From IMG/VR virus record IMGVR_UViG_3300017717_002521, positions 1 through 64,000 of that record: a stretch of DNA of 64,000 nt. One strand, written 5' to 3'. This DNA is from a virus. Below, piece by piece: positions 3,498-40,340 of this stretch; the first letter of the stretch is position 1; each line of letters begins with the position of its first letter. The position numbers and the translations under genes are program-made. Under the pieces are notes generated by a model. That model made no database searches, had not been told where the DNA came from, and saw nothing but the letters and a program-made list of their open reading frames with translations.

Positions 3498-4295
3498 ATG
3501 GATTTAAATGCTATACGCGCAAAGCTGGATACGTTAAATAATAGCGGCCAGCAAAGAGAGAAAACAGATTATTCAAAAATATTTTGGAAACCTGAACTAG
3601 GTAAGCAAACCGTACGTATCGTACCTTCTGCTTATGATCCTACTTTTCCGTTTAAGGAATTAAAATTTCACTACGGAGTAGGAAAGTACCCGATGGTAGC
3701 CTTATCAAACTTTGGTAAGCAAGACCCAATCGAAGAGTTCGTTAAAGAACTAAGAAAAACTAACGATAAAGATAATTGGTCTCTATCAGGTAAACTTAAC
3801 CCTAAAACCAGAGTTTTTGCTCCTGTTGTTGTAAGAGGAGAAGAAGATAAAGGTGTAAGACTATGGGGCTTTGGTATTACTATCTATAAAGCATTACTTG
3901 CTTTAGCAGAAGATGAAGATATCGGAGACTTCACAGACGTTATTAACGGATGGGATATGGTGGTAGAACAAGTACAAGGTAATCCTTACCCTGAGACTAC
4001 TGTTCGTATTAAACCTAAACAAACTCCTTTATCTGATAATAATGATTTAGTCGATACATGGATTAAGACTCAACCTAATCCTACTGAAGTTCATACTGAG
4101 TATGATTACGACTTTATTAAAAAACAACTACAAAGTTATTTAAACCCTGGAGCTGAGGAGACTAGTACTCCTACTGCAGGTGCTGAAACTAAGCCAGAAA
4201 GCACAAGTCCTCAAAAAACAGACTTTACTTTGGAAACAGCTACGGCTGGCAACCAAGACACAGTTAGTAAATTTGATGACTTATTTAATGAATAA
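3498..4295 (+). CDS. Single-stranded DNA-binding protein, T4 gp32-like
   Basis: FWKP...VRIVP pattern, acidic aromatic C-terminal tail (KFDDLFNE), adjacent to recA. Confidence 0.75.
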   Translation: MDLNAIRAKLDTLNNSGQQREKTDYSKIFWKPELGKQTVRIVPSAYDPTFPFKELKFHYGVGKYPMVALSNFGKQDPIEEFVKELRKTNDKDNWSLSGKLNPKTRVFAPVVVRGEEDKGVRLWGFGITIYKALLALAEDEDIGDFTDVINGWDMVVEQVQGNPYPETTVRIKPKQTPLSDNNDLVDTWIKTQPNPTEVHTEYDYDFIKKQLQSYLNPGAEETSTPTAGAETKPESTSPQKTDFTLETATAGNQDTVSKFDDLFNE

Positions 4296-19013: not shown

Positions 19014-19805
19014 ATGGCGAAAAATGTCGTAGTTAGTCTTTCAGGAGGGATGGACTCCTCAACTCTATTACTTAGATGTTTATCTGAGTATGATAATGTA
19101 ACTGCTTTATCTTTTGATTATGGTCAGAAGCATAGAGTAGAGCTCGAAAGAGCTCAATCATTAGTAGATTATTTAAATGCTAATGGTCAGAATATTAAAT
19201 ATCAAGTTATTAAACTTGACGGATTAGTTAATCTTCTTAACTCAGCATTAGTAACTGGAGGAGATGATGTACCGGAAGGTCATTATGAAGAAGATAATAT
19301 GAAAGCTACTGTAGTACCCAATAGAAATAAAATATTTGCTTCTATAGTTCAAGCAGTTGCTTTGTCTGAAGCTAATGCAAATGGTTTAGAGACTGATATT
19401 GCTCTAGGTATACATGCAGGAGATCATGCAATATATCCAGACTGTAGACAGGAGTTTAGAGATGCTGATGATTATGCCTTTAGATTAGGTAACTGGGATG
19501 CAGATAAAGTAAATTATGCTACTCCTTACTTAGATACTGATAAACTTGGAATTTTAAAAGATGGACAAAGATTGGTTAACGAGCTCGGAATTGAGTTTGA
19601 TGAAGTTTACAAACGTACTAATACTTCTTACAAGCCCTATCCTAGCGGTAATAGCGACTATAAATCAGCATCATCTGTTGAAAGGATTGAAGCATTCATC
19701 AACTTGGGTGTGGATGACCCTGTACAATATGAGGATGAAACTGGAGAAGTTGAATATAGTGTTGCGAAAGCACATGTCGAAAAACTATTAGCACAATATG
19801 CGTAA
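19014..19805 (+). CDS. queC: 7-cyano-7-deazaguanine (preQ0) synthase
   Basis: SLSGGMDS, FDYGQKH, TVVPNRN, YPDCR. Confidence 0.95.
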   Translation: MAKNVVVSLSGGMDSSTLLLRCLSEYDNVTALSFDYGQKHRVELERAQSLVDYLNANGQNIKYQVIKLDGLVNLLNSALVTGGDDVPEGHYEEDNMKATVVPNRNKIFASIVQAVALSEANANGLETDIALGIHAGDHAIYPDCRQEFRDADDYAFRLGNWDADKVNYATPYLDTDKLGILKDGQRLVNELGIEFDEVYKRTNTSYKPYPSGNSDYKSASSVERIEAFINLGVDDPVQYEDETGEVEYSVAKAHVEKLLAQYA

Positions 19806-26536: not shown

Positions 26537-26569
26537 AGTTGGCTATTAAAATATTTTTTATTATATTTA
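26537..26569 (+). promoter_or_regulatory. -33/-7 promoter (AGTTGG-N19-TATATTTA) of the queD-queE operon
   Basis: Recurrent motif immediately upstream of a riboswitch-like element. Confidence 0.7.
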
Positions 26570-26582
26570 TTAATATGACTAT

Positions 26583-26611
26583 AGTGTCGTAGCACCACTT
26601 TAAAAACACGA
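26583..26611 (+). ncRNA. preQ1-I-like riboswitch candidate
   Basis: P1 AGUG/CACU, loop UCGUAGCAC, tail UUAAAAACACGA; between promoter and ATG of the operon carrying queD and queE. Confidence 0.7.
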
Positions 26612-26614
26612 AAA

Positions 26615-26893
26615 ATGGTAAATTTAAATTTAAAAGAAATCGAGGATGACCTCTATGACGTTGATTCTCGCAAATTAAGGAACGAAGAGTATCTCTACAG
26701 TAGACGTTCTAAAGCTAAAAGTCCTTCACAACCTACAAATCACCCAGATGCTAAAAAGCATCAAATAGTATCTTTTATTAAGTCTGGAGTTAGAATAGCA
26801 GGGTACGTATTATTAGCTGCCGATATGTTGGTAGCCTGCGCAGTAGTTCTTATATTATCAGAAGTAGTAGGTATCTACGAAGAACTGGTATAA
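26615..26893 (+). CDS. Small membrane protein heading the queD-queE operon
   Basis: C-terminal hydrophobic hairpin HQIVSFIKSGVRI...SEVVGIYEELV; coupled to queD. Confidence 0.6.
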   Translation: MVNLNLKEIEDDLYDVDSRKLRNEEYLYSRRSKAKSPSQPTNHPDAKKHQIVSFIKSGVRIAGYVLLAADMLVACAVVLILSEVVGIYEELV

Positions 26894-27360
26894 TGGGAAA
26901 ATTTACATCAACGAAAGTATTTGACGGTTTCTCGACTGTATTCCGTCAATGGAAAGCCGAAACTACTCACTGTAGGTATTTACATGGGTATGGTATATCA
27001 TTTAAATTATGGTTTGAAGGAGATTTGGATGAACGTAACTGGGTATGGGACTTCGGAGGTATGAAAAGAGCTAAAGGTACTATAGACGGTATGTCTCCTA
27101 AAGCATGGTTTGATTACATGTTTGATCATACTTTTGTAGTAGCCGAAGATGATCCTTTTAAAGAATCTTTTCTTAAAATGAATGAAGCAGGTGTAGCTCA
27201 AGTAAGAATAGTACCTGCTACAGGAGCTGAAAGATTTTCTCAATTTATTTACGATAAAGTAAATCCCTTTATAAAAGAAGAAACTCAAGGTAGAGTAAAA
27301 ATATCAAAAGTAGAATTTAGAGAACACGGTAAAAACTCAGCAATATATGAGCCTAGGTAG
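26893..27360 (+). CDS. queD: 6-carboxytetrahydropterin synthase
   Basis: HCRYLHGY, WVWDFG, FDH, GAE, EHGKNSA. Confidence 0.92.
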   Translation: MGKFTSTKVFDGFSTVFRQWKAETTHCRYLHGYGISFKLWFEGDLDERNWVWDFGGMKRAKGTIDGMSPKAWFDYMFDHTFVVAEDDPFKESFLKMNEAGVAQVRIVPATGAERFSQFIYDKVNPFIKEETQGRVKISKVEFREHGKNSAIYEPR

Positions 27361-28123
27361 AATAGAAGACTACAATAAAAATTTACCAATAGTAGAAGTA
27401 TATACTGCAGTACAATCGGAAGGTTCAAGACAAGGTTTTCCTACTATTGTTATTAGAACTACTGGTTGCACTCATAGGTGTTACTTCGGTGAAGGTGGCT
27501 GGTGTGATAGCTGGTATACAAGTATTCATCCAGAAAAAGGTAAGTTTAATTTTAATGACATTATTAAAGCATATGATGATAATCCTCATATATCAGAAAT
27601 GATGTTAACTGGTGGTTCTCCTACTATGCATGGTAAACTTGTAAATGAACTTACACATTTTGCTAATGAAAGAGATATCTTTATTACAATAGAGAATGAA
27701 GGTAGTCATTTTTTACCTACTGACTATCCTATAGATTTACTTTCTATTAGTCCTAAGTTTAGTAACTCTATTCCTCAACTAGGAGTAGAAACTCCTCAAG
27801 GTAAGATTGTAGATGAAAAAATGATTAAACAGCATAATAAGTTTAGACTTAATAAAGATGCTATAAAAAAGTCAATAGAGTATCATAAGGATTATCATAT
27901 TAAACCTGTATTAGATAAAGATTTAAGGATTTATGGTGAAGTTTATAAATTCTTAGAAGAGTTAGAGATACCTAATGAAAAAGTTTGGTGTATGCCTGCA
28001 GGTGATGATAGAGAATCTTTAATGGAAAGCTACCCAGTTGTTATGGACTTTGTTAGAGATAAAGGATATAGATTTACTGGTAGAGCACATATTATGGCGT
28101 TTAATACTGAAAGAGAAGTATAA
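27347..28123 (+). CDS. queE: 7-carboxy-7-deazaguanine synthase (radical SAM)
   Basis: VQSEG, IRTTGCTHRC...WCDS, LTGGSP, SISPK; adjacent to queD. Confidence 0.92.
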   Translation: MSLGRIEDYNKNLPIVEVYTAVQSEGSRQGFPTIVIRTTGCTHRCYFGEGGWCDSWYTSIHPEKGKFNFNDIIKAYDDNPHISEMMLTGGSPTMHGKLVNELTHFANERDIFITIENEGSHFLPTDYPIDLLSISPKFSNSIPQLGVETPQGKIVDEKMIKQHNKFRLNKDAIKKSIEYHKDYHIKPVLDKDLRIYGEVYKFLEELEIPNEKVWCMPAGDDRESLMESYPVVMDFVRDKGYRFTGRAHIMAFNTEREV

Positions 28124-28271: not shown

Positions 28272-28484
28272 ATGGCACAATACACGGTGATTAAAATGCT
28301 TAAGAAGGAATTCGAAGCAAACAGAGAAAAAGCTTTACTCACACTAGAGTTACTAACTCAACATCCTGCTGGTATTGGTGATCACTCTACAGAGGATTTC
28401 TATAAAAATGCAACTGAAGCTATTGTAGCTTTGGCCGAGGCTGAAGACGTATTAGAGACCATAGAAAGACATTTTGCAGAATGA
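28272..28484 (+). CDS. Hypothetical phage protein
   Basis: 70-aa helical ORF with PAGIGDHS motif. Confidence 0.55.
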   Translation: MAQYTVIKMLKKEFEANREKALLTLELLTQHPAGIGDHSTEDFYKNATEAIVALAEAEDVLETIERHFAE

Positions 28485-28723
28485 AACTACCAGTAATAAG
28501 AAAATTAAGTGAGTTCTCGTTAACTGAAATCAATAACTCAATTAAGTTATTAGAATCTATAACAGATTCAAGAGGAATTACTGAAAATGAGCTTGATGCA
28601 TTAGGAGAAATTTTATCTAATCTTTATGGAGCTCAAAACGTAAGAGAGTCTGTAATGAGAGGTTTAAAAAGAACTGATGCATTAAATAATTTTATGAAAC
28701 GTGTAACATCAGTAGGTAAATGA
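28481..28723 (+). CDS. Bacteroidota-type small protein (DUF6952-like)
   Basis: MKLPVIR...ELDALGEILSNLYGA...ALNNFMKRV. Confidence 0.6.
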   Translation: MKLPVIRKLSEFSLTEINNSIKLLESITDSRGITENELDALGEILSNLYGAQNVRESVMRGLKRTDALNNFMKRVTSVGK

Positions 28724-29028
28724 GTTATATTATAGGTAAACCATGTGAAGCAACTTGTGATACTGCCTGTGTAGCAGTTTGCCCAGTTAACTGTATACAT
28801 GGTCCTATAGATATTGATGGAGCAGGTCAAGAAGTATCAGGTATGGAAATAGGTCCTACCGATATGCTTTACATCAATCCAGACGAATGTATTGACTGTG
28901 GAGCTTGTTTGCCGGAATGTCCAGTTGAAGCTATTTATGATAGTGAAGAAGAGGCTATTGAAAAAGATGGTACTGACACATACGTAAAGAGAAATTATAA
29001 CTTTTTTGGCTTACAATATAATGTATAA
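28720..29028 (+). CDS. Dicluster Fe-S ferredoxin
   Basis: CDTACVAVCPVNCI and LYINPDECIDCGACLPECPVEAI. Confidence 0.92.
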   Translation: MSYIIGKPCEATCDTACVAVCPVNCIHGPIDIDGAGQEVSGMEIGPTDMLYINPDECIDCGACLPECPVEAIYDSEEEAIEKDGTDTYVKRNYNFFGLQYNV

Positions 29029-29386
29029 GTATAAAGCAAAATTAGTAAGGGTTGTAGACGGCGACACTGCCGATGTTATGATAGACCTTGGGTTTAACGT
29101 TTGGACTAAACAAAGATTAAGGTTCAAAGGAGTTGATACTTGGGAAAAAAGAACTCGAGATAAAGAAGAAAAAATAAGAGGTCTAGCTGCTACTGCATTT
29201 ACTACAGAATATTTAGAAAAAAATAATGGACTGTTTACTATTCAATCATATGGAGTGGGTAAATATGGAAGAGTATTAGCAGAAATTTTTATAGAAGGAG
29301 AAAAGAAATCTCTAAATGAGTTATTATTAGAAAATGGCCACGCTTATGTCTACGATGGTGGCAAGAAAAAAGTATTTCAAGGATGA
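29021..29386 (+). CDS. Thermonuclease (SNase) family protein
   Basis: RVVDGDT, GVDTWE, GKYGRVLA, LLENGHAYVYDGG; start likely MYKYKAK. Confidence 0.85.
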   Translation: MYKYKAKLVRVVDGDTADVMIDLGFNVWTKQRLRFKGVDTWEKRTRDKEEKIRGLAATAFTTEYLEKNNGLFTIQSYGVGKYGRVLAEIFIEGEKKSLNELLLENGHAYVYDGGKKKVFQG

Positions 29387-29542: not shown

Positions 29543-32017
29543 ATGAGAAAACTCGTTACAGTGCTGTTAATGTTTTTAGCAGTTGGAGCTTACGCTCAAG
29601 AAACGAGTACTGATTCTAAGACCATCTTAGATGTAAACTTAGAAGAAGTTGTTGTATCGTCTAGAGTTATTGATGTCGCAAAAGAAAGAGAGACACCAAT
29701 TGCAGTTAGTACGATCTCAGCACAAGAAGTACTCCTTAAAGTAGGAAACCAAGAGTTTCCAGAAATTATGAACAAGACACCTGGAGTGTATGCTACTAAA
29801 CAAGGAGGAGGATACGGTGATAGTCGTATTTCTTTAAGAGGTTTCGATCAGCGTAATACTTCTTTCCTTATTAACGGTCAACCCGTTAATGATATGGAAA
29901 ATGGTTGGGTTTATTGGTCAAACTGGCAAGGATTGACAGACGTGACGTCTAGCATCCAAATCCAACGTGGTCTTGGTGCCACATCGTTAGCAGTTCCTTC
30001 AGTCGGTGGAACTGTTTCTATTTTCACTAAGAGTGCAGAGAAAGCTCAAGGTGGGTCTATTACTCAAATGGTAGGTAACGACGGTTACATTAAAACAACC
30101 GCTCTTTACAATACTGGAGTAAATGACAAAGGATGGTCTTCTTCTTATTTATTGACTAAATGGTCTGGTAACGGATATATTTACAATACTTCAGGAGCTG
30201 GTTGGACTTATTTTGCATCTGTTGGTTACACACCAGAAGGTTCAAAACATAGCCTAAACTTATCAGTTTTAGGTGCTGGACAATGGCATCATCAAAGAGA
30301 TGTTTGGGTATCTATTAGAGATTACCAGAACTTTGGTAAAGCCGGTATTGATCAGAGATGGAATACTAACGGTGGAACGTTAAATGGTAGTGAGTATAAC
30401 TTACGTAGAAACTTCTACAATAAACCTCTTGCTACTCTAAACTGGGATTGGGATATTTCAGAAAACGTTCAATTAAATACATCTGTATACGGTTCAGCCG
30501 GAAGAGGTGGAGGAACAGGTCCTAGAGGTAGAAACTATTATGAAGGATCTATCGATATGTTACCTTTCCGTAAGGATCTAACAGAACACTACCTAGAAGA
30601 TGGTAAAGGAACTAGAAATGCTGATGGTACTATTAACTATGACGCAGTAGTTGCTCATAACTCACAATACGAAGTAGGGTCTCATAATGATAAAGATTAC
30701 GCTAGAAACGTATTAGTACGAAGAGCATCTATGAACTCTCATAACTGGATTGGAGCTATCTCTAAGCTTAATATCCAGAAAGGTAGTATGAGATATTCAT
30801 TAGGATTAGATCTTAGGGATTACACAGGTTATCACTACAGAGCAATGAATGATCTATTAGGTCTTAATCAATATGCTTCTACTGGTAACCAAAACTTAAG
30901 TACTCAACTATATAATTCATCTGATTTAATATCAGCTAACCCATTTAGAGGTACTAATATTGGTGATAATGAAGCAAAGATTGCTTATTATAATATTGGA
31001 TTTGTAAAATGGGCTGGATTTAACGGATTAGTAGAATATGCTGGTGATAAGATTACTGCAGTACTACAAGCCGGAGCATCTAACCAACAGTTCCAAAGAG
31101 AAGATAGATTTGCAAACGTAGATAATCCTATTTCTGATAAAGCTAACTTAGGTGGTGGATATCTTAAAGGAGGATTAAACTATAACTTTACTGAAAAATC
31201 TAACGTATTTGTAAACGCTGGATTTATTGACCGTCAGCCTTTATTTGACGCAGTATTCCCTAACTTTGGAAATGACGTTAATCCAGACCTACAAAATGAA
31301 CGTATCGAATCATTTGAGATTGGGTATGGTTATATAGGTAAGAGATTAAGACTAAATGTTAATGCATATAACACTAACTGGGGTAATAGATTTGTTTCTA
31401 GAAGTTTATCTAACCAACAAGGTGTAGATGGTACAGCTCAGTTTAGAAATATTGATGTAACACATAAAGGTTTCGAAGCTGAAGGTACTTACACAGTAGG
31501 AGGTACTAAGCTTAGAGGTATGCTATCTATTGGGGATTGGACTTATACTAAAGACTTTGAAGCAGAGTTATTTGATGAGAATCAACAATCTATCGGTACT
31601 GGTAAACTTTACTTAAAAGGAGCTAAAGTAGGAGATGCTGCACAAACTACAGCATTATTAGGTATTGATCAGAAGATTGGGTCGAACATTAGAGTTGATC
31701 TAGATTACAGATTTGTAGATAACCTATACGCTGACTATAGTATTACTGATTCAGCTTTTACTTCTCCTGATAATGATGGAGCGTTAAAACTACCTTCATT
31801 CGGTTTATTAGATTTAGGAGCTACATTTTATGCTAATAATGGATGGTCGTTAAGAGCGAATATTAATAACTTATTAGATGAAACTTATATTGCAGAGTCT
31901 AATAGTAATATTCATACAGATGCTGATTCCACTACTTGGAACGGTGTTGATGTTAGAAATAGTGTTTGGTTCGGCTTCGGTAGAACTTGGAACGTTTCTC
32001 TCAAATATAAATTTTAA
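29543..32017 (+). CDS. TonB-dependent outer-membrane receptor
   Basis: Signal peptide, TonB-box-like LEEVVVSS, plug ISLRGF...LINGQP...IQIQRG, C-terminal NINNLLDETY...GRTWNVSLKYKF. Confidence 0.92.
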   Translation: MRKLVTVLLMFLAVGAYAQETSTDSKTILDVNLEEVVVSSRVIDVAKERETPIAVSTISAQEVLLKVGNQEFPEIMNKTPGVYATKQGGGYGDSRISLRGFDQRNTSFLINGQPVNDMENGWVYWSNWQGLTDVTSSIQIQRGLGATSLAVPSVGGTVSIFTKSAEKAQGGSITQMVGNDGYIKTTALYNTGVNDKGWSSSYLLTKWSGNGYIYNTSGAGWTYFASVGYTPEGSKHSLNLSVLGAGQWHHQRDVWVSIRDYQNFGKAGIDQRWNTNGGTLNGSEYNLRRNFYNKPLATLNWDWDISENVQLNTSVYGSAGRGGGTGPRGRNYYEGSIDMLPFRKDLTEHYLEDGKGTRNADGTINYDAVVAHNSQYEVGSHNDKDYARNVLVRRASMNSHNWIGAISKLNIQKGSMRYSLGLDLRDYTGYHYRAMNDLLGLNQYASTGNQNLSTQLYNSSDLISANPFRGTNIGDNEAKIAYYNIGFVKWAGFNGLVEYAGDKITAVLQAGASNQQFQREDRFANVDNPISDKANLGGGYLKGGLNYNFTEKSNVFVNAGFIDRQPLFDAVFPNFGNDVNPDLQNERIESFEIGYGYIGKRLRLNVNAYNTNWGNRFVSRSLSNQQGVDGTAQFRNIDVTHKGFEAEGTYTVGGTKLRGMLSIGDWTYTKDFEAELFDENQQSIGTGKLYLKGAKVGDAAQTTALLGIDQKIGSNIRVDLDYRFVDNLYADYSITDSAFTSPDNDGALKLPSFGLLDLGATFYANNGWSLRANINNLLDETYIAESNSNIHTDADSTTWNGVDVRNSVWFGFGRTWNVSLKYKF

Positions 32018-33300: not shown

Positions 33301-33830
33301 GCAAGTTAATTAATTTATTTGGAGGCCCCGGAATAGGAAAAAGTGGAATTGCAGCAGGTTTAACATATGAATTAAAAAGGAAGCATATAAGTTGTAACAA
33401 CCCTTATGAGTTCCCTAAAAAACTGGCATGGGATAAAAACTATCCAGCTATACAAGATCAGTTATATGTATTTGCTAATCAACATAGAGGTATAGCAGAG
33501 TGTTACAATAAAGTAGACTATATTATCATTGACTCTCCCGTAATGTTTTCTACTATCTATCATAGCTACTATACAAAAGGATACCCAGCAGAAAACTATG
33601 GACAATCGTTTCATAATATGGTAGTTGATCTTCATAATACTTACGATAATCTTAACATACTACTAAAGAGATCGAATACAGAGATTAATGAAGCAGAAAG
33701 ATTTCAAGATCTTAAACAATCTATAGAGATTGATGAATTATGTAAAGCTAAGTTAGAGGAACATAATTTACCGTACGTTGAAATAGAGGTAAATGATGAT
33801 ACAGTAAATGAAATATTAAAATTGTTATAA
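33297..33830 (+). CDS. AAA_28 / NadR-like nucleoside or nucleotide kinase
   Basis: INLFGGPGIGKS, EFPK, IIDSP, ERFQ. Confidence 0.75.
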   Translation: MSKLINLFGGPGIGKSGIAAGLTYELKRKHISCNNPYEFPKKLAWDKNYPAIQDQLYVFANQHRGIAECYNKVDYIIIDSPVMFSTIYHSYYTKGYPAENYGQSFHNMVVDLHNTYDNLNILLKRSNTEINEAERFQDLKQSIEIDELCKAKLEEHNLPYVEIEVNDDTVNEILKLL

Positions 33831-34249
33831 TGGAAAAAAATAAGTTATATTTAAGTTGGAAATGGGTAGACGATCAAATTAATAAAATAGGAGATAAACT
33901 TGAAAGTATAGATTTAGAATTTGTATCTGGTATACCCAGAGGAGGATTAATACCTGCAGTTATGATGTCACATGCATACGGTATTAAGTATATTAGCTAC
34001 TCTTCAGCTAAAATGCTACCATTAGAATTAAGAAAGAAAACCATAGTAATAGATGATATATCAGATACTGGGTTGACTATGTCTGAAGCTGATAAATTAA
34101 AATTTATTACATCTAGTCTCACCACAAGAGTAGGTACTAAAACGTTGCCTAGGCTTACGGGTGAATTGATAAGTGACGATCGCTGGTTAGTATTTCCTTG
34201 GGAAACTTTAGATAGTATTCCTGTTCAAGATTATTTGATGAATTCATAA
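33830..34249 (+). CDS. Type I phosphoribosyltransferase (xanthine/guanine PRT-like)
   Basis: GIPRGGLIPA, PRPP loop IVIDDISDTGLT, WLVFPWE. Confidence 0.88.
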   Translation: MEKNKLYLSWKWVDDQINKIGDKLESIDLEFVSGIPRGGLIPAVMMSHAYGIKYISYSSAKMLPLELRKKTIVIDDISDTGLTMSEADKLKFITSSLTTRVGTKTLPRLTGELISDDRWLVFPWETLDSIPVQDYLMNS

Positions 34250-35694: not shown

Positions 35695-35727
35695 AGTTTG
35701 TAGTTTTAAATTTTATTCTTATATTAA
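35695..35727 (+). promoter_or_regulatory. -33/-7 promoter (AGTTTG-N19-TATATTAA) of the folE operon
   Basis: Recurrent motif directly upstream of a riboswitch-like element. Confidence 0.7.
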
Positions 35728-35733
35728 TAATAA

Positions 35734-35763
35734 TGAGTCGTAGAACCTCAATAAAAACAAAAG
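35734..35763 (+). ncRNA. preQ1-I-like riboswitch candidate
   Basis: P1 UGAG/CUCA, loop UCGUAGAAC, tail AUAAAAACAAAAG ending 3 nt before the folE ATG. Confidence 0.72.
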
Positions 35764-35766
35764 TAA

Positions 35767-36480
35767 ATGCCTAAAAAATTTATAGAAGGAACTGAATTAG
35801 TTCGTGCCGGTTTTGCTAACGGTATATCAAGTCAACTAGCAAAGAAACAACAAACTGAAGGACCTGAAGCAAGGTTAGATTCAGAAGAAAAACAAGTTAT
35901 AATAGAAAATGCTGCTAAAGCATATGGAGACTTCTTAACTGCTCTAGGATGTAATTATAAAGAAGATCCTAACTCTTCAGATACTCCAATGAGAGTAGCA
36001 AAAGCATACGTTAACGATTTATGGGCTGGAAGATATAGTCCACTAGACCGTATTACAGCATTTCCATCAGACGGTTATGACGGTATAGTTCAAGAGAGTA
36101 ACATACCTGTAACGTCTATGTGTTCTCACCACCATCAAGCTATTAGAGGTACAGTAAGTATTGCTTATATAGCATCTCAAGATGGTAAAGTAGTAGGTTT
36201 ATCTAAACTAAATAGAATAGTAGAGCAGTTCGGTAGAAGAGGTGCTATACAAGAACAGCTGACTGTAGCTATACATAATGCTGTAGATAAGATATGTGAA
36301 GGTAACTTAGGAGTAGCAGTACAAGTGAATGCAACTCATGCATGTGTATCATGTAGAGGAGTAAAGCATCATAGTGCTTCAATGCAAACAGCTAAACTTA
36401 CAGGTGCTTTCTTAGATGAAGATTCTGCTAAAGCAGAGTTCTACAAGAATATAGAATTAGCAAGTATATGCAAACATTAA
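35767..36480 (+). CDS. folE: GTP cyclohydrolase I
   Basis: TPMRVAKAY, SMCSHHH, VVGLSKLNR, IQEQL, HACVSCRGV. Confidence 0.96.
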   Translation: MPKKFIEGTELVRAGFANGISSQLAKKQQTEGPEARLDSEEKQVIIENAAKAYGDFLTALGCNYKEDPNSSDTPMRVAKAYVNDLWAGRYSPLDRITAFPSDGYDGIVQESNIPVTSMCSHHHQAIRGTVSIAYIASQDGKVVGLSKLNRIVEQFGRRGAIQEQLTVAIHNAVDKICEGNLGVAVQVNATHACVSCRGVKHHSASMQTAKLTGAFLDEDSAKAEFYKNIELASICKH

Positions 36481-36484
36481 TATT

Positions 36485-37057
36485 ATGAAAGGTAAACAAT
36501 TATCACTATTTCCAGAAGAAGCAGATAACGTATGGGTTAACGATTACGTACCGTTTGTATCTGAAGTAGAAACATTTAACGAAACATTTAACAAACCGAA
36601 CAACTATGAACCAACCATCCCATCTGAAAAAGAGTGGAAATTCGTTTATAACTTTATCCTCGAAGAACTCGAAGAATATAGAGAAGCTTGCGAACGAGGC
36701 GACATTGTGGAAGTTCTGGACGCTTTGTGCGACATTGCTTATGTTTCCATTGGGAACGGGACTATGTTACATGGCCTTAAAAATAAGATATGGCCGGCAT
36801 ATCAAGAGGTACAAGCTTCAAATATGTCGAAAGCTTGTTCGACTGAAGAAGAGGCCATACAGAGTGTCAGCAAAAGAAGTAAGGAACAAGGTGAGGCCTG
36901 TCATTTTGAGAAGGTTGCGGAGGGACGGTACATTGTCTATCGTACAAGAGACAGAAAAGTAATGAAGAGTAATAATTACTTTAGACCAGACTTACAGCAG
37001 TTCTTTAGCGGTGATGATATTGTAAGAACAAGACCCCAACAACATTCAGGAATATGA
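36485..37057 (+). CDS. MazG-like / PRA-PH all-alpha NTP pyrophosphohydrolase
   Basis: ILEELEEY, EVLDALCDIAYV, EVQASNMSK. Confidence 0.82.
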   Translation: MKGKQLSLFPEEADNVWVNDYVPFVSEVETFNETFNKPNNYEPTIPSEKEWKFVYNFILEELEEYREACERGDIVEVLDALCDIAYVSIGNGTMLHGLKNKIWPAYQEVQASNMSKACSTEEEAIQSVSKRSKEQGEACHFEKVAEGRYIVYRTRDRKVMKSNNYFRPDLQQFFSGDDIVRTRPQQHSGI

Positions 37058-37263
37058 TTAAAATAGAAGATTTTAAAAAAGAATTTAACGGAGAATTTTA
37101 CGTACCCCTCTCTATCGCTAACCAAGCAGTTAAAGAAGCTTACCAAAGCAATAAAGAGTATAATCAAATGAACAATAAGTTAGAAGATCTTAATAAACAA
37201 TTAAATGATGCTATGAAAGAAATAGGAGAAGGGTTTAAAGATATGAAAAATTTAAAGTTATAA
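37054..37263 (+). CDS. Small coiled-coil hypothetical protein
   Basis: 69-aa ORF within the operon. Confidence 0.5.
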   Translation: MIKIEDFKKEFNGEFYVPLSIANQAVKEAYQSNKEYNQMNNKLEDLNKQLNDAMKEIGEGFKDMKNLKL

Positions 37264-37266
37264 TGT

Positions 37267-38061
37267 ATGATTAAAATAGCTCATGAAGCTCCTATAGATA
37301 TTTTTGACGAAGTTCAAAGGTTAACTGATTACGATTACGCTTTAGTTCATTTATTAGAGCAAAATGGTAGATATAGAGATACGTTTGAAAGAGCAGTTAA
37401 AAGAGGTAGAGAAGTTATTTTAGATAACTCTATTTTTGAGTTAGAAGAAGCATTTGAAGCTGATAGATTTGCATTATGGGTTGAAAGATTAAAACCTACT
37501 TGGTATATAGTTCCAGATGCATTGGAGAATGCTGAAAAGACTATGGAACAAGCACTTGATTGGGTTAAAAGTTATAAAAGTATACCTGGGAAAAAAATAG
37601 GTGTTGTTCAAGGTAAAAACTATCACGAGATTGTAGCTTGTTATAAGTTTATGGACACTAGAGATATTGATATGATAGCTATTTCATTCGATTATTCGTA
37701 TTATAGTGATTCTATTCCTCATCCTAACAAGTATGTTAGCTGGATGCTAGGACGTGTTAAGCTACTAGGAGATTTAGAGAGAGACGGTATAATTAATAAA
37801 GATAAACCTCATCACTTACTAGGTTGTGGATTACCTCAAGAATTTAGTTTTTATAAAAATGCTAACTATAAATGGCTCTACTCTTTAGATACTTCTAACC
37901 CAGTAGTCCACGGTCTAAAAGGTATAGAGTATGACAGAGAAGGACTTTGGTCTAAAGAATCTCAAAAGTTACATGAATTAATTAATGTACCTATAGAAGA
38001 GATTGATATTGAGAAAGTAACTAGTAATATAGAGAAGTTTAGATGGCTAACAAATGGATAA
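37267..38061 (+). CDS. dpdA: TGT-fold guanine transglycosylase-like protein (DpdA-like, probably DpdA3 type)
   Basis: ILDNS, IVPD, GVVQG, HHLLG, SLDTSNP correspond to TGT catalytic motifs; located in the que gene cluster. Confidence 0.75.
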   Translation: MIKIAHEAPIDIFDEVQRLTDYDYALVHLLEQNGRYRDTFERAVKRGREVILDNSIFELEEAFEADRFALWVERLKPTWYIVPDALENAEKTMEQALDWVKSYKSIPGKKIGVVQGKNYHEIVACYKFMDTRDIDMIAISFDYSYYSDSIPHPNKYVSWMLGRVKLLGDLERDGIINKDKPHHLLGCGLPQEFSFYKNANYKWLYSLDTSNPVVHGLKGIEYDREGLWSKESQKLHELINVPIEEIDIEKVTSNIEKFRWLTNG

Positions 38062-38570
38062 CATTCTTCAGTCAAACTGGAGCTGAGATAGCTGATTTAT
38101 CTGAAAATATTGGAAGATGGCCTGATATTATTATTACTAATAGTAGACCAGACCACTTAAGAACTATAGATCCTAGAATAGTAGAATACGGTTATACTGA
38201 AGTACCTAATAAACCTACAGTAAGTGATTTAGATGCTGTATTACAAGATAATGCTGTTATAACATTACATGGTTGGTTGAGGATAATGCCTGAAGTAATA
38301 TGTAATAAGTATTTGATTTATAATGGTCATCCTGGACTTATTACTAAATATCCTGAACTTAAGGGTAAAGATCCTCAAGTAAAAGCTCATAAACTTGGAC
38401 ATGAAGTAGCAGGTGCAGTTATACATAAAGTAACAGCAGGAGTAGATGAAGGTAGGATTATTATGGAGGAATATTTCAATGCTACTCAGTTGGATCTTGA
38501 TAGTTTATTTCGTATATTAAGAGATAGATCATTGTATATGTGGTCTAATCTACTTAAACAGGTTTTATGA
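38043..38570 (+). CDS. PurN-like formyltransferase (candidate preQ1 formyltransferase, DpdN-like)
   Basis: FSQTG, LHGWLRI, YNGHPGL, HKVTAGVDEG; overlaps the dpdA-like gene. Confidence 0.82.
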   Translation: MANKWITFFSQTGAEIADLSENIGRWPDIIITNSRPDHLRTIDPRIVEYGYTEVPNKPTVSDLDAVLQDNAVITLHGWLRIMPEVICNKYLIYNGHPGLITKYPELKGKDPQVKAHKLGHEVAGAVIHKVTAGVDEGRIIMEEYFNATQLDLDSLFRILRDRSLYMWSNLLKQVL

Positions 38571-39082
38571 TAAAAAGAATAGCTTTAGTTGGAGCAAGTA
38601 GTACTGGTAAGACTACTGTTTTTGAATTACTTAAGAATAAATTACCTAAGTATGAGTTCGTAAACGAATCTACTCGTAATGTAGCTAAGTACGGATTTCC
38701 TATTAATGAGTTTGGTACTGATGCTACTCAACTTGCTATTAGTAGCTTTCATTTAGAAGCTTTACTTAAACCTTATAATCTTATTCTAGATAGATGTTAT
38801 ATGGATCTTATAGTCTATACTAATCATATGGATGTTGATGATTCTACTAAAGATTATATAGAAGAGACTTGGCATAGAGTAAAAGGAGAGTATACTCATT
38901 ATATTTATTTTCCTATTGAATTTTAATCTGTAGATGATGGAGTAAGAAGTGTTAATGAGGATTGGAGAAAAGATATAGATAATGAATTTAAAAAGTATCT
39001 TGAGACTGTAAGAAAGCCTTACTTAACTATAACTGGTTCTCCTATGCAAAGGGTTAACCAAATATTAGAGTTTATAAAATGA
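38567..39082 (+). pseudogene. AAA_28 / NadR-like kinase interrupted by one in-frame TAA at 38924-38926
   Basis: GASSTGKTT and LDRC; after FPIEF-stop the frame continues SVDDGVRS...TITGSPMQRVNQILEFIK to a TGA at 39080-39082 overlapping the next ATG. Confidence 0.7.
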
Positions 39083-39432
39083 GAGTATGTAATGTCTGTC
39101 ATGAAGAAAAGAGAGATGTTAAATATAAACATGAAAGTAAAAAAACATGTATTAAATGCGAAACCAGATGGTGGAGAGTATTCCTCAGAGCTTTAGTTAA
39201 GGAACGTAGACTTACACCTATAGAGAGAATAGCTAATAGAGCAGGGTATATGGGATCAGCTTTTATTATGATGTCTCCTTACTTATTAAAATACGATAAT
39301 ATAGGAGCATACACATATGTTCTAGGAGCCTTACTTACCATACCTCAAGTATGGATTGCAAAGCAATGGAATATAGTAGCATTGAATATTAACCTTTTAG
39401 TCGGGTATGGACTATACATAATTAATTCTTAA
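39079..39432 (+). CDS. Zn-finger-like N-terminus fused to a 3-TM membrane domain
   Basis: CNVC...CIKC, then three hydrophobic helices similar to 33082..33300. Confidence 0.55.
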   Translation: MRVCNVCHEEKRDVKYKHESKKTCIKCETRWWRVFLRALVKERRLTPIERIANRAGYMGSAFIMMSPYLLKYDNIGAYTYVLGALLTIPQVWIAKQWNIVALNINLLVGYGLYIINS

Positions 39433-39434
39433 AT

Positions 39435-40340
39435 ATGAGTGAAGTTAAAAATTATGAAGCAGTAAAAGAAATTGCTTCTAAACATTTAGGTAAAGTAGGC
39501 GGTGATGGTTATAGTGATCAATACAACGCTGAATTATTAGTTAAAATACCTCGAGTATTAAATCGAGAGGGGTATGGATTAACCGGTAAAGAATTTAAAG
39601 GTGTTGATACCTGGAACGCCTATGAAGTATCAGCTATAACTACTAAAGGTCAACCCGTTGCTGGGATGTTAAAAATAGTTTGTCCTTCTGATAGTGAATA
39701 TCATGTAGAGTCAAAATCTATTAAACTATACCTTAATTCATTTAATATGACTGAGATTGGAGATACAGCAGCTGATTGTATTACCGGCATAGAAGCTAGA
39801 GTAAAAAGAGATTTAGATGAGTTATTGGAAACTATTACTACCATAAGCTTTTATGCTTCAGAATTTGAAACTGAACCTCTTTCTTTTGCTAATGATTATA
39901 AAGATCTAGGTGAGGAAGTTAACTTAGATTTGATAGACTTTACTGCATTTAAGTCAGATGCTACTCAATTAGAGGTAAAAGAAGAAGAAGGTGAAATAAA
40001 ATTTAGATCTAATCTATTAAGGTCTAACTGTAGAGTAACTAATCAGCCGGATTGGGGAGATGTATTTATTTATATGAAAGGAAGTAAATTACCTGTAGCT
40101 GATTCGTTAGCTAAATATATAGTAAGTCATAGGACAGTTAGTCATTTTCATGAGGAGATATGCGAAATGATATTTGCTCATCTAAGTGAAAGATTTGAAC
40201 CTGAGCAATTAATGGTGTCGTGTTTGTATACTCGTAGAGGAGGAATAGATATTAATCCTATTAGAGCTACTCATAGTTATTTAATACCAGAGTTTTTTAC
40301 TAACCCCGATTTTACTATTAGAAAAACTTTAAGACAGTAA
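39435..40340 (+). CDS. queF: NADPH-dependent preQ0 reductase (bimodular QueF)
   Basis: QueF motif VESKSIKLYLNSF, LRSNCRVTNQPDWG, FHEEICE, YTRRGGIDINP. Confidence 0.95.
   Translation: MSEVKNYEAVKEIASKHLGKVGGDGYSDQYNAELLVKIPRVLNREGYGLTGKEFKGVDTWNAYEVSAITTKGQPVAGMLKIVCPSDSEYHVESKSIKLYLNSFNMTEIGDTAADCITGIEARVKRDLDELLETITTISFYASEFETEPLSFANDYKDLGEEVNLDLIDFTAFKSDATQLEVKEEEGEIKFRSNLLRSNCRVTNQPDWGDVFIYMKGSKLPVADSLAKYIVSHRTVSHFHEEICEMIFAHLSERFEPEQLMVSCLYTRRGGIDINPIRATHSYLIPEFFTNPDFTIRKTLRQ

Follow-up and report, generated by a model that had tools for sequence, protein, structure and literature searches.

A candidate miniature preQ1-I-type riboswitch in the folE and queD-queE leaders of immuto-like phages

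The DNA analysed here, which we call the window, is a 64,000-nt stretch of a 91-kb viral record from IMG/VR (IMGVR_UViG_3300017717_002521), and it comes from a Flavobacterium-type phage and contains genes for 7-deazaguanine synthesis and DNA modification (Table 1). One group of these begins with folE and ends with QueF. The first-pass annotation had placed an NTP pyrophosphatase, a DpdA-like protein, a formyltransferase and QueF after folE; Pfam and NCBIfam agree with that content, and the gene order from folE to QueF is syntenic with that of the annotated phage immuto. The genes from folE to QueF are likely co-transcribed. An orf92-queD-queE block lies upstream of folE, and QueC is encoded further upstream still. 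Immuto has all G in its DNA replaced by formyl-dPreQ1, and it encodes FolE, QueD, QueE, QueC, QueF, DpdA3 and the formyltransferase DpdN (PMC10516641).

Table 1. Features of the window, with positions, strand and the basis or remarks for each.
Feature	Position	Strand	Remarks
QueC	19026..19703	+	PF06508, 137 bits
Promoter-like box before second copy, TTGGCT-N17-TATATT	26539..26567	+	
Second copy of the element	26583..26609	+	P1 AGUG 26583-86 with CACU 26596-99; loop UCGUAGCAC 26587-95; L3 UUAAAAA 26600-06; C26607; A26608
orf92-QueD-QueE block	26615..28123	+	QueD 26893-27360, QueE 27347-28123; Pfam PTPS, Radical_SAM; NCBIfam QueD, QueE
Promoter-like box before folE copy, TTGTAG-N16-TATATT	35698..35725	+	Kept upstream of the motif in relatives; putative function
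folE copy, P1 5' strand UGAG	35734..35737	+	99% paired, compensatory changes in 3/4 pairs, 26 distinct sequences
folE copy, 9-nt loop UCGUAGAAC	35738..35746	+	Loop positions 1, 5, 6 and 9 invariant, n=48 distinct instances
folE copy, loop equivalents in Tte		+	U35738 = Tte U6, C35739 = C7, A35742-G35743 = A10-G11, C35746 = specificity base C15 (PMC8222354, PMC7641330, PMC11625349)
folE copy, P1 3' strand CUCA	35747..35750	+	AC directly 5', as in type II preQ1-I (PMC11625349)
folE copy, A-rich L3 AUAAAAA, then C35758 and invariant A35759	35751..35759	+	AAAA-C-A invariant, n=48
C35758			Candidate partner of G35743, equivalent of the Tte G11-C30 ceiling
folE, GTP cyclohydrolase I, 237 aa	35767..36480	+	Pfam PF01227 GTP_cyclohydroI, E 6.6e-42
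Genes downstream of folE	36485..40340	+	MazG/PRA-PH-like NTP pyrophosphatase, small ORF, DpdA-like, DpdN-like, AAA_28 kinase-like ORF, ORF117, QueF
DpdA-like transglycosylase	37267-38061	+	Weak TGT match; immuto counterpart annotated DpdA
DpdN-like formyltransferase	38043-38570	+	
QueF	39435-40340	+	

The leader immediately before folE (35734-35766) reads UGAG-UCGUAGAAC-CUCA-AUAAAAAC-AAAAGUAA in RNA, with the folE AUG directly after it at 35767. In DNA, this is TGAG-TCGTAGAAC-CTCA-ATAAAAACAAAAGTAA, then ATG. The first-pass annotation, which proposed a preQ1-I-like riboswitch here, read the leader correctly, i.e., the two strands TGAG and CTCA, the TCGTAGAAC loop between them, ATAAAAACAAAAG at 35751-35763, then TAA and the start codon. 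The element thus consists of a 4-bp stem (P1), a 9-nt loop and an A-rich tail (L3), and its A-run (35753-35757) occupies -14 to -10 relative to the AUG. By itself, the hairpin is thermodynamically ordinary (-2.7 kcal/mol, z = 0.11). A weak isolated hairpin is common enough in the preQ1-I class, and this value lends no support.

A mismatch-tolerant pattern search found a second copy of the element, absent from the first-pass annotation, at 26583-26609 (AGTG-TCGTAGCAC-CACT-TTAAAAAC-AC, with an ATG at 26615). It fills the gap between the thymidylate synthase gene and the orf92-QueD-QueE block, its A-run spans -13 to -9 from the orf92 AUG, and an equivalent copy precedes orf92-queD-queE in 20/20 related records examined. 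In every related record examined, orf92 (26615-26893, + strand; homologues in L224-L243) is the first gene past this copy and sits directly before queD. Its product is a conserved 92-aa protein with no Pfam or PHROG match and no RNA-binding family, so orf92 can be ruled out as a recognisable RNA-binding protein. Nor does it have a BLASTP match to immuto gp53, the gene at the corresponding position and the one compared.

Sixteen ungapped variants of the element served as the basis of our covariance model, R1. Over the whole 91-kb record, R1 scores the folE copy at 48.4 bits and the second copy at 44.2 bits, with the next best match at 11 bits. QueC has no element in front of it, i.e., there is no R1 match nearby.

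Both copies lie 8-15 nt downstream of a promoter-like box of the class TTG-N18-20-TATATT. A consensus promoter had been claimed at 35695-35727 in the first pass; a promoter-like box conserved in relatives does exist there, with its limits redrawn as in Table 1. The 64-kb window contains 20 copies of this box class on the + strand and 4 on the - strand. Sites on the + strand (TTGG..-N-cTTATATT) include 1604, 3440, 7125, 11212, 18216, 26539, 32977, 35698, 45976, 48025 and 52066, among others, and the box is often 10-25 nt ahead of a start codon. It is probably a phage promoter class. The Bacteroidetes promoter consensus is TAnnTTTG, which is unlike the phage TATATT box. The element is found at only two of the ~20 boxes, so it goes with two particular promoters and not with the promoter class as a whole; we therefore ruled out that it is a general repeat or a promoter component. 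The folE transcript would start 0-8 nt before P1, which would put the element at the extreme 5' end of the mRNA, and the second copy would likewise open the orf92-queD-queE mRNA.

The stem drawn in the first pass holds up in orthologous leaders. Across 26 distinct sequences (prefiltered for at least three pairs), P1 is 99% paired, with compensatory changes at three of its four pairs. It has a covariation score of 0.60, compared to 0.14 in shuffles, with 0/500 shuffles reaching 0.60, and the signal is gone when the 3' strand is slid. The forms found are UGAG/CUCA, GGAG/CUCC, UGUG/CACA, AGUG/CACU, GGUG/CACC and UAAG/CUUA, so pair 1 can be UA, GC or AU, pair 2 can be GC or AU, and pair 3 can be AU or UA. 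When no pairing filter is applied and folE loci are fetched by protein, 17 of the 18 distinct loop-plus-tail matches are 4/4 paired and the other is 3/4 paired. P1 is therefore a covariation-supported stem of 4 bp, one pair below the 5-bp consensus of preQ1-I.

How widespread the element is can be judged from 80 IMG/VR folE loci taken by protein similarity alone, which give 56 distinct leaders. Approximately two-thirds of these leaders carry the element. Counted by record, it is present in 44 out of the 49 related phage records from IMG/VR (a set that includes four records rated 100% complete, 160-177 kb in size), with a maximum of two copies per record. Its only positions, in the window as in all related records examined, are before folE or orf92-queD-queE. 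Both folE and queD-queE encode entry steps to 7-deazaguanine, a context that favours a preQ1-type switch. QueF is encoded in all records that carry the motif and are of sufficient length for the test. Three relatives that are near-complete and have no motif also have no QueF, and two fragments encode QueF and lack the motif. The cultured phage immuto has the folE copy only, with the second copy missing.

Some related phages have a folE leader from which the hairpin is absent (L077, L081, L086, L100, L112 and L123), and most of them retain the queD-side copy. In these hairpin-less leaders the promoter box is still there, as is a short A-rich leader, which makes the hairpin look like an add-on regulatory module. 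They amount to natural controls from which the aptamer is missing.

Sequence conservation is concentrated in the loop and tail. Over 48 distinct instances, the loop consensus is U-[C/u]-[G/a]-N-A-G-N-[A/c]-C, where U1, A5-G6 and C9 are each found in 48/48, A8 in 47/48 and C2 in 45/48. The G-C pair that closes P1 is invariant in all but one of the 48. The tail contains AAAA-C-A, with its C in 48/48, and L3 is 5-9 nt long (mostly 7) and ends with the invariant AAAA. Being A-rich, L3 is a candidate for docking in the P1 minor groove. The loop and tail bases of the pocket are thus kept in orthologous leaders, which is the conservation that the first-pass annotation expected of a true aptamer.

The aptamer to compare this with is that of Thermoanaerobacter tengcongensis (Tte), CUGGG-UCGCAGUAAC-CCCAG-UUAACAAAAC-AAGG (PMC10639078). 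The likeness to a class I pocket, proposed in the first pass from one sequence, persists across all of the variation: the invariant phage bases coincide with the Tte pocket nucleotides and can be mapped one to one. Loop U1 equals Tte U6 and the last tail A before the C equals A29 (AAAA being A26-A29), both of which contact preQ1 in Tte, while loop C9 equals C15, which forms a Watson-Crick pair with preQ1 (PMC8222354). The P1 closing G-C equals G5-C16, the floor of the Tte pocket, and loop C2, loop G6 and the tail C equal C7, G11 and C30, the triple that forms its ceiling (PMC11625349). Loop A5 and the A after the tail C equal A10 and A31, which make non-canonical P2 steps in Tte (PMC7641330). 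Loop A8 equals A14, and the variable phage loop positions 3, 4 and 7 fall at Tte G8, C9 and U12. The ceiling bases are all present in the phage element, and G6 and the tail C, both invariant, are a candidate pair. An “AC” before the P1 3' strand is the defining mark of type II preQ1-I (PMC11625349), and the phage element has it, with the C in 48/48 instances and the preceding A in 47/48.

The Rfam model for the class gives a different answer. A search with the preQ1 class I model was suggested in the first pass, and RF00522 detects neither copy: there is no PreQ1 match in a whole-window cmscan at the gathering threshold (39 bits), and none at E<=10 in a 201-nt slice or in 47-nt slices of both copies. 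Over the whole record, RF00522 yields only two 16-bit matches, at 3726-3759 (+) and record position 84325-84362 (+), and neither is an element copy. We judged the former to be chance, as it lies inside an ORF (3498-4295). Permissive Rfam matches to CrcZ, SpR10 and the UPD pseudoknot were spurious A-rich hits. In the RF00522 consensus, P1 is 5 bp long, the loop is 12 nt (UUCGuAAaCcUC) and the tail reads AUAAAAAACUAAGg; by this model the element is not a family member.

P2, the second helix of the preQ1-I H-type pseudoknot, normally runs for about 3-4 steps from the loop to the 3' tail. In the phage element, the only constant candidate P2 pair is the invariant G-C. One possible further pair, which is Tte-like, joins loop position 4 to the nucleotide three places past the tail C. 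It is a standard pair in 35 of the 48 instances, a value that 70/5000 shuffles reach, and the signal is phylogenetically confounded. The types are U-A (24), C-G (6), U-G (3), A-U (1) and G-U (1), with all of the C-G cases coming from one queD-copy lineage. If the pairing is instead made contiguous, with loop 2-4 facing +3 to +1, it fits the window's queD copy and fails for the folE copy. We tried these two registers for an extended P2, and neither is kept across the variants.

Set against the type II preQ1-I aptamers (Tte and Bacillus subtilis queC), the element is alike in its overall order of hairpin, A-rich tail and then C, in its loop pattern 'U C.. A G. (A) A C' with 'AC' before the P1 3' strand and a closing G-C, in its AAAA-C-A tail, and in being found in the leaders of genes for 7-deazaguanine synthesis. 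Its 3' end is within the translation-initiation region, which is also the case for the translational switch of Tte. It differs in having a P1 of 4 bp instead of 5, an L3 of mostly 7 nt, and a loop of 9 nt compared to 10 in Tte and 12 in both B. subtilis and the Rfam consensus. It is also without the canonical 3' P2 strand (AAGG or CUAAG) and has no Shine-Dalgarno to sequester, it precedes DNA hypermodification genes rather than tRNA queuosine genes or transporters, and it exists as paralogous copies, up to two per phage genome. We would class the element as a new, miniature variant of the type II preQ1-I aptamer that is carried by phages.

Within the sets searched, the element is confined to phage or phage-like contigs. 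R1 finds nothing above 25 bits or better than E 0.19 in 151 sampled Flavobacteriaceae genomes, and the sole motif-like genome match (L188) sits within coding sequence, so we rejected a host origin. Among 40 bacterial or MAG folE loci, the motif is only in L176 (a 5.9-kb contig with a FolE 88% identical) and L139 (a 61.6-kb MAG contig with a FolE 76% identical). Each encodes a phage-like FolE and is putatively phage DNA that ended up in a MAG.

Classical preQ1-I is itself sparse in the sampled genomes, with RF00522 exceeding its cut-off in 1/151 Flavobacteriaceae and 0/151 Bacteroidota genomes. The one example (L191 1501-1545, - strand, in Flavobacteriaceae genome G036) scores 50 bits, ends 1 nt before an AUG and is followed by a gene for a Vut_1/YhhQ-family transporter. 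It resembles the phage element in coming from the same host family and in placing an A-rich tail and P2 inside an initiation region that has no Shine-Dalgarno. Unlike the phage element, it is type I-like, full-size (5-bp P1, 12-nt loop UUCGCAAUUCUC, tail AAAAAACUAAG) and cellular, and it stands before a salvage transporter. RF00522 also gives sub-threshold look-alikes at L192 (28.6 bits) and L193 (26.1 bits).

Some other phages were also considered. The Cellulophaga phages phiST and phi13:1 have a queE-folE gap of 15 nt, and their annotation gives no evident aptamer. phiST, which has dDG DNA, shows no QueF match. For phage Dp-1, a possible preQ1 riboswitch in the que cluster was considered, and it was dropped when the first 6 kb gave no Rfam match.

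Taken together, the structure, conservation pattern, copy number and context make it near certain that the element is a cis-acting structured RNA. Since every invariant base matches the preQ1-I pocket, sensing of a 7-deazaguanine is on balance the best explanation for it. Put more specifically, the element is probably a miniature version of a class I (type II-like) preQ1 aptamer, specific to phages, that acts as a translational OFF switch.

Such a switch could work as follows. As a free 7-deazaguanine base (preQ1, possibly preQ0 or formyl-preQ1) accumulates, it would pair with the loop-closing C (C35746 or C26595) and be stacked between the top G-C pair of P1 and the G-C ceiling (G35743-C35758 in the folE copy). 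The A-rich tail would then dock into the P1 minor groove, folding away the adenines at approximately -14 to -10, along with the following nucleotides, that SD-less Flavobacterium ribosomes use. Translation of FolE, QueD and QueE, the first three enzymes of the pathway, would drop, giving end-product feedback on the pathway that supplies the modified base for all G of the phage DNA. The pseudoknot, ligand binding, the identity of the ligand, the OFF direction and the transcript start are all predictions in this scheme.

Its translational aspect has support from the host side. Flavobacterium johnsoniae ignores Shine-Dalgarno sequences; its initiation is promoted by adenines at positions -14 to -11 (above all -12 and -13), -6 and -3 and is also tuned by secondary structure (PMC6847099). 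The first-pass annotation had argued that the tail covers the A-rich bases before the ATG, and the A-run at -14 to -10 does overlap these initiation adenines (PMC6847099). Were the A-tract to dock and the nucleotides after it to be captured, the initiation signal would be lost, and translation would be switched OFF. The tail C is 6-14 nt before the AUG in 48/48 instances, too close for a terminator. The layout at L191 and the hairpin-less phage leaders also fit the initiation region as a platform for this kind of control. The element had been described as heading the whole modification operon, and this is borne out only in part. It has folE directly downstream, and the second copy heads queD-queE. 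However, only folE is expected to be under direct control in its operon because the regulation would be translational, unless the downstream genes are coupled.

Three alternatives to a preQ1 switch need to be weighed. A riboswitch of the same fold could have preQ0, formyl-preQ1, CDG or guanine as its ligand, which we consider unlikely but worth keeping in view. In immuto, fdPreQ1 amounts to ~100% of G, and DpdN may act on either the free base or DNA (PMC10516641); type II aptamers bind preQ0 only ~17-fold more weakly than preQ1 (PMC11625349), and the pocket near the 7-substituent could have a different shape because L2 and P1 are shorter. However, the guanine of the pocket floor, which in Tte (G5) recognises the aminomethyl group, is conserved in the phage element, and presence of the motif tracks QueF, the enzyme that forms preQ1, wherever this is testable.

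The main rival to any riboswitch is that a phage or host protein binds the hairpin as a translational operator and recognises its conserved loop, with the likeness to preQ1-I being coincidental or vestigial. Protein-bound operators have precedents in T4 RegA, the gene 32 operators and the MS2 coat-protein hairpin, and a covarying stem with an invariant loop beside a start codon is the signature of an operator as much as of an aptamer. P2 support that ends at one G-C and the failure of Rfam to find the element point the same way, as does the constant position of orf92 as first gene past the second copy. We nonetheless hold this to be rather improbable: the invariant bases coincide with the preQ1-I pocket (PMC8222354, PMC11625349), and a hairpin-binding protein has no obvious need for a conserved single-stranded AAAA-C-A tail. 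As for orf92, its product matches no RNA-binding family, and it is unlikely to be a trans-factor because immuto keeps the folE copy with neither an orf92 match at gp53, the gene compared, nor the second copy.

It is very doubtful that the element binds no ligand and is either a 5'-terminal hairpin that stabilises the mRNA or an inverted-repeat DNA operator past the promoter: its place directly after a promoter-like box, its 4-bp inverted repeat and its weak isolated hairpin would suit that idea, but a stabilising hairpin needs neither the invariant 9-nt loop nor the invariant tail, a DNA palindrome recognised by a dimer would be conserved in sequence, yet close relatives have six complementary pair combinations, and of ~20 similar boxes in the window, the element is only at the two before deazaguanine genes.

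We know of no riboswitch that regulates phage DNA modification, and our full-text literature searches returned no report of a phage preQ1 riboswitch. The word “riboswitch” is absent from the text of the paper on the immuto fdPreQ1 pathway (PMC10516641). A 2017 census found phage riboswitches to be rare, with only c-di-GMP-I (in C. difficile prophages) and glutamine (in cyanophages) represented (PMC5473149). The present element would be like these in being a metabolite-sensing RNA on a phage genome (PMC5473149). However, they are standard members of cellular classes and can be detected with cellular models, whereas the present element is diverged and miniature and would control the phage's own DNA-modification pathway.

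The widest reading joins all of these points: the smallest natural aptamer yet (a core of ~26-28 nt), present only in immuto-like Flavobacteriia phages and phage-like contigs in the sets searched, would be the first riboswitch on viral DNA hypermodification, with two paralogous copies imposing feedback on FolE and on QueD/QueE in an SD-free manner via the A-rich -14 to -10 region, and with preQ1 or formyl-preQ1 as ligand. Our confidence in this combination is evenly divided. If the element does bind a 7-deazaguanine base, then phages that replace all of their G would meter a GTP-consuming pathway through RNA feedback. Natural aptamers would turn out to reach smaller sizes than known so far, and curated covariance models would be missing diverged phage versions of known classes. 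There would also be a concrete case of riboswitch control of SD-less mRNAs, an open challenge named by the preQ1 field (PMC11625349). Phage immuto, in which the folE copy is present, provides a cultured system on Flavobacterium sp. LMO8.

A few other genes between the queD-queE and folE blocks deserve mention. After queE (28481-29386, +) are a DUF6952 gene, a 4Fe-4S ferredoxin gene and a staphylococcal-nuclease-like ORF. The ferredoxin is kept after queE in relatives, and it may be the reductant for QueE, a radical-SAM enzyme. Next is an ORF of 824 aa (29543-32017, +) whose product has the Plug and beta-barrel domains of TonB-dependent receptors; phages do not usually carry a gene for an outer-membrane receptor. 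Finally, an ORF at 33830-34249 (+) resembles xanthine/purine phosphoribosyltransferases, corresponds to immuto gp60 and is also kept by relatives in the interval from queE to folE. Along with the MazG-like pyrophosphatase after folE, it hints at handling of the modified base at the nucleotide level.
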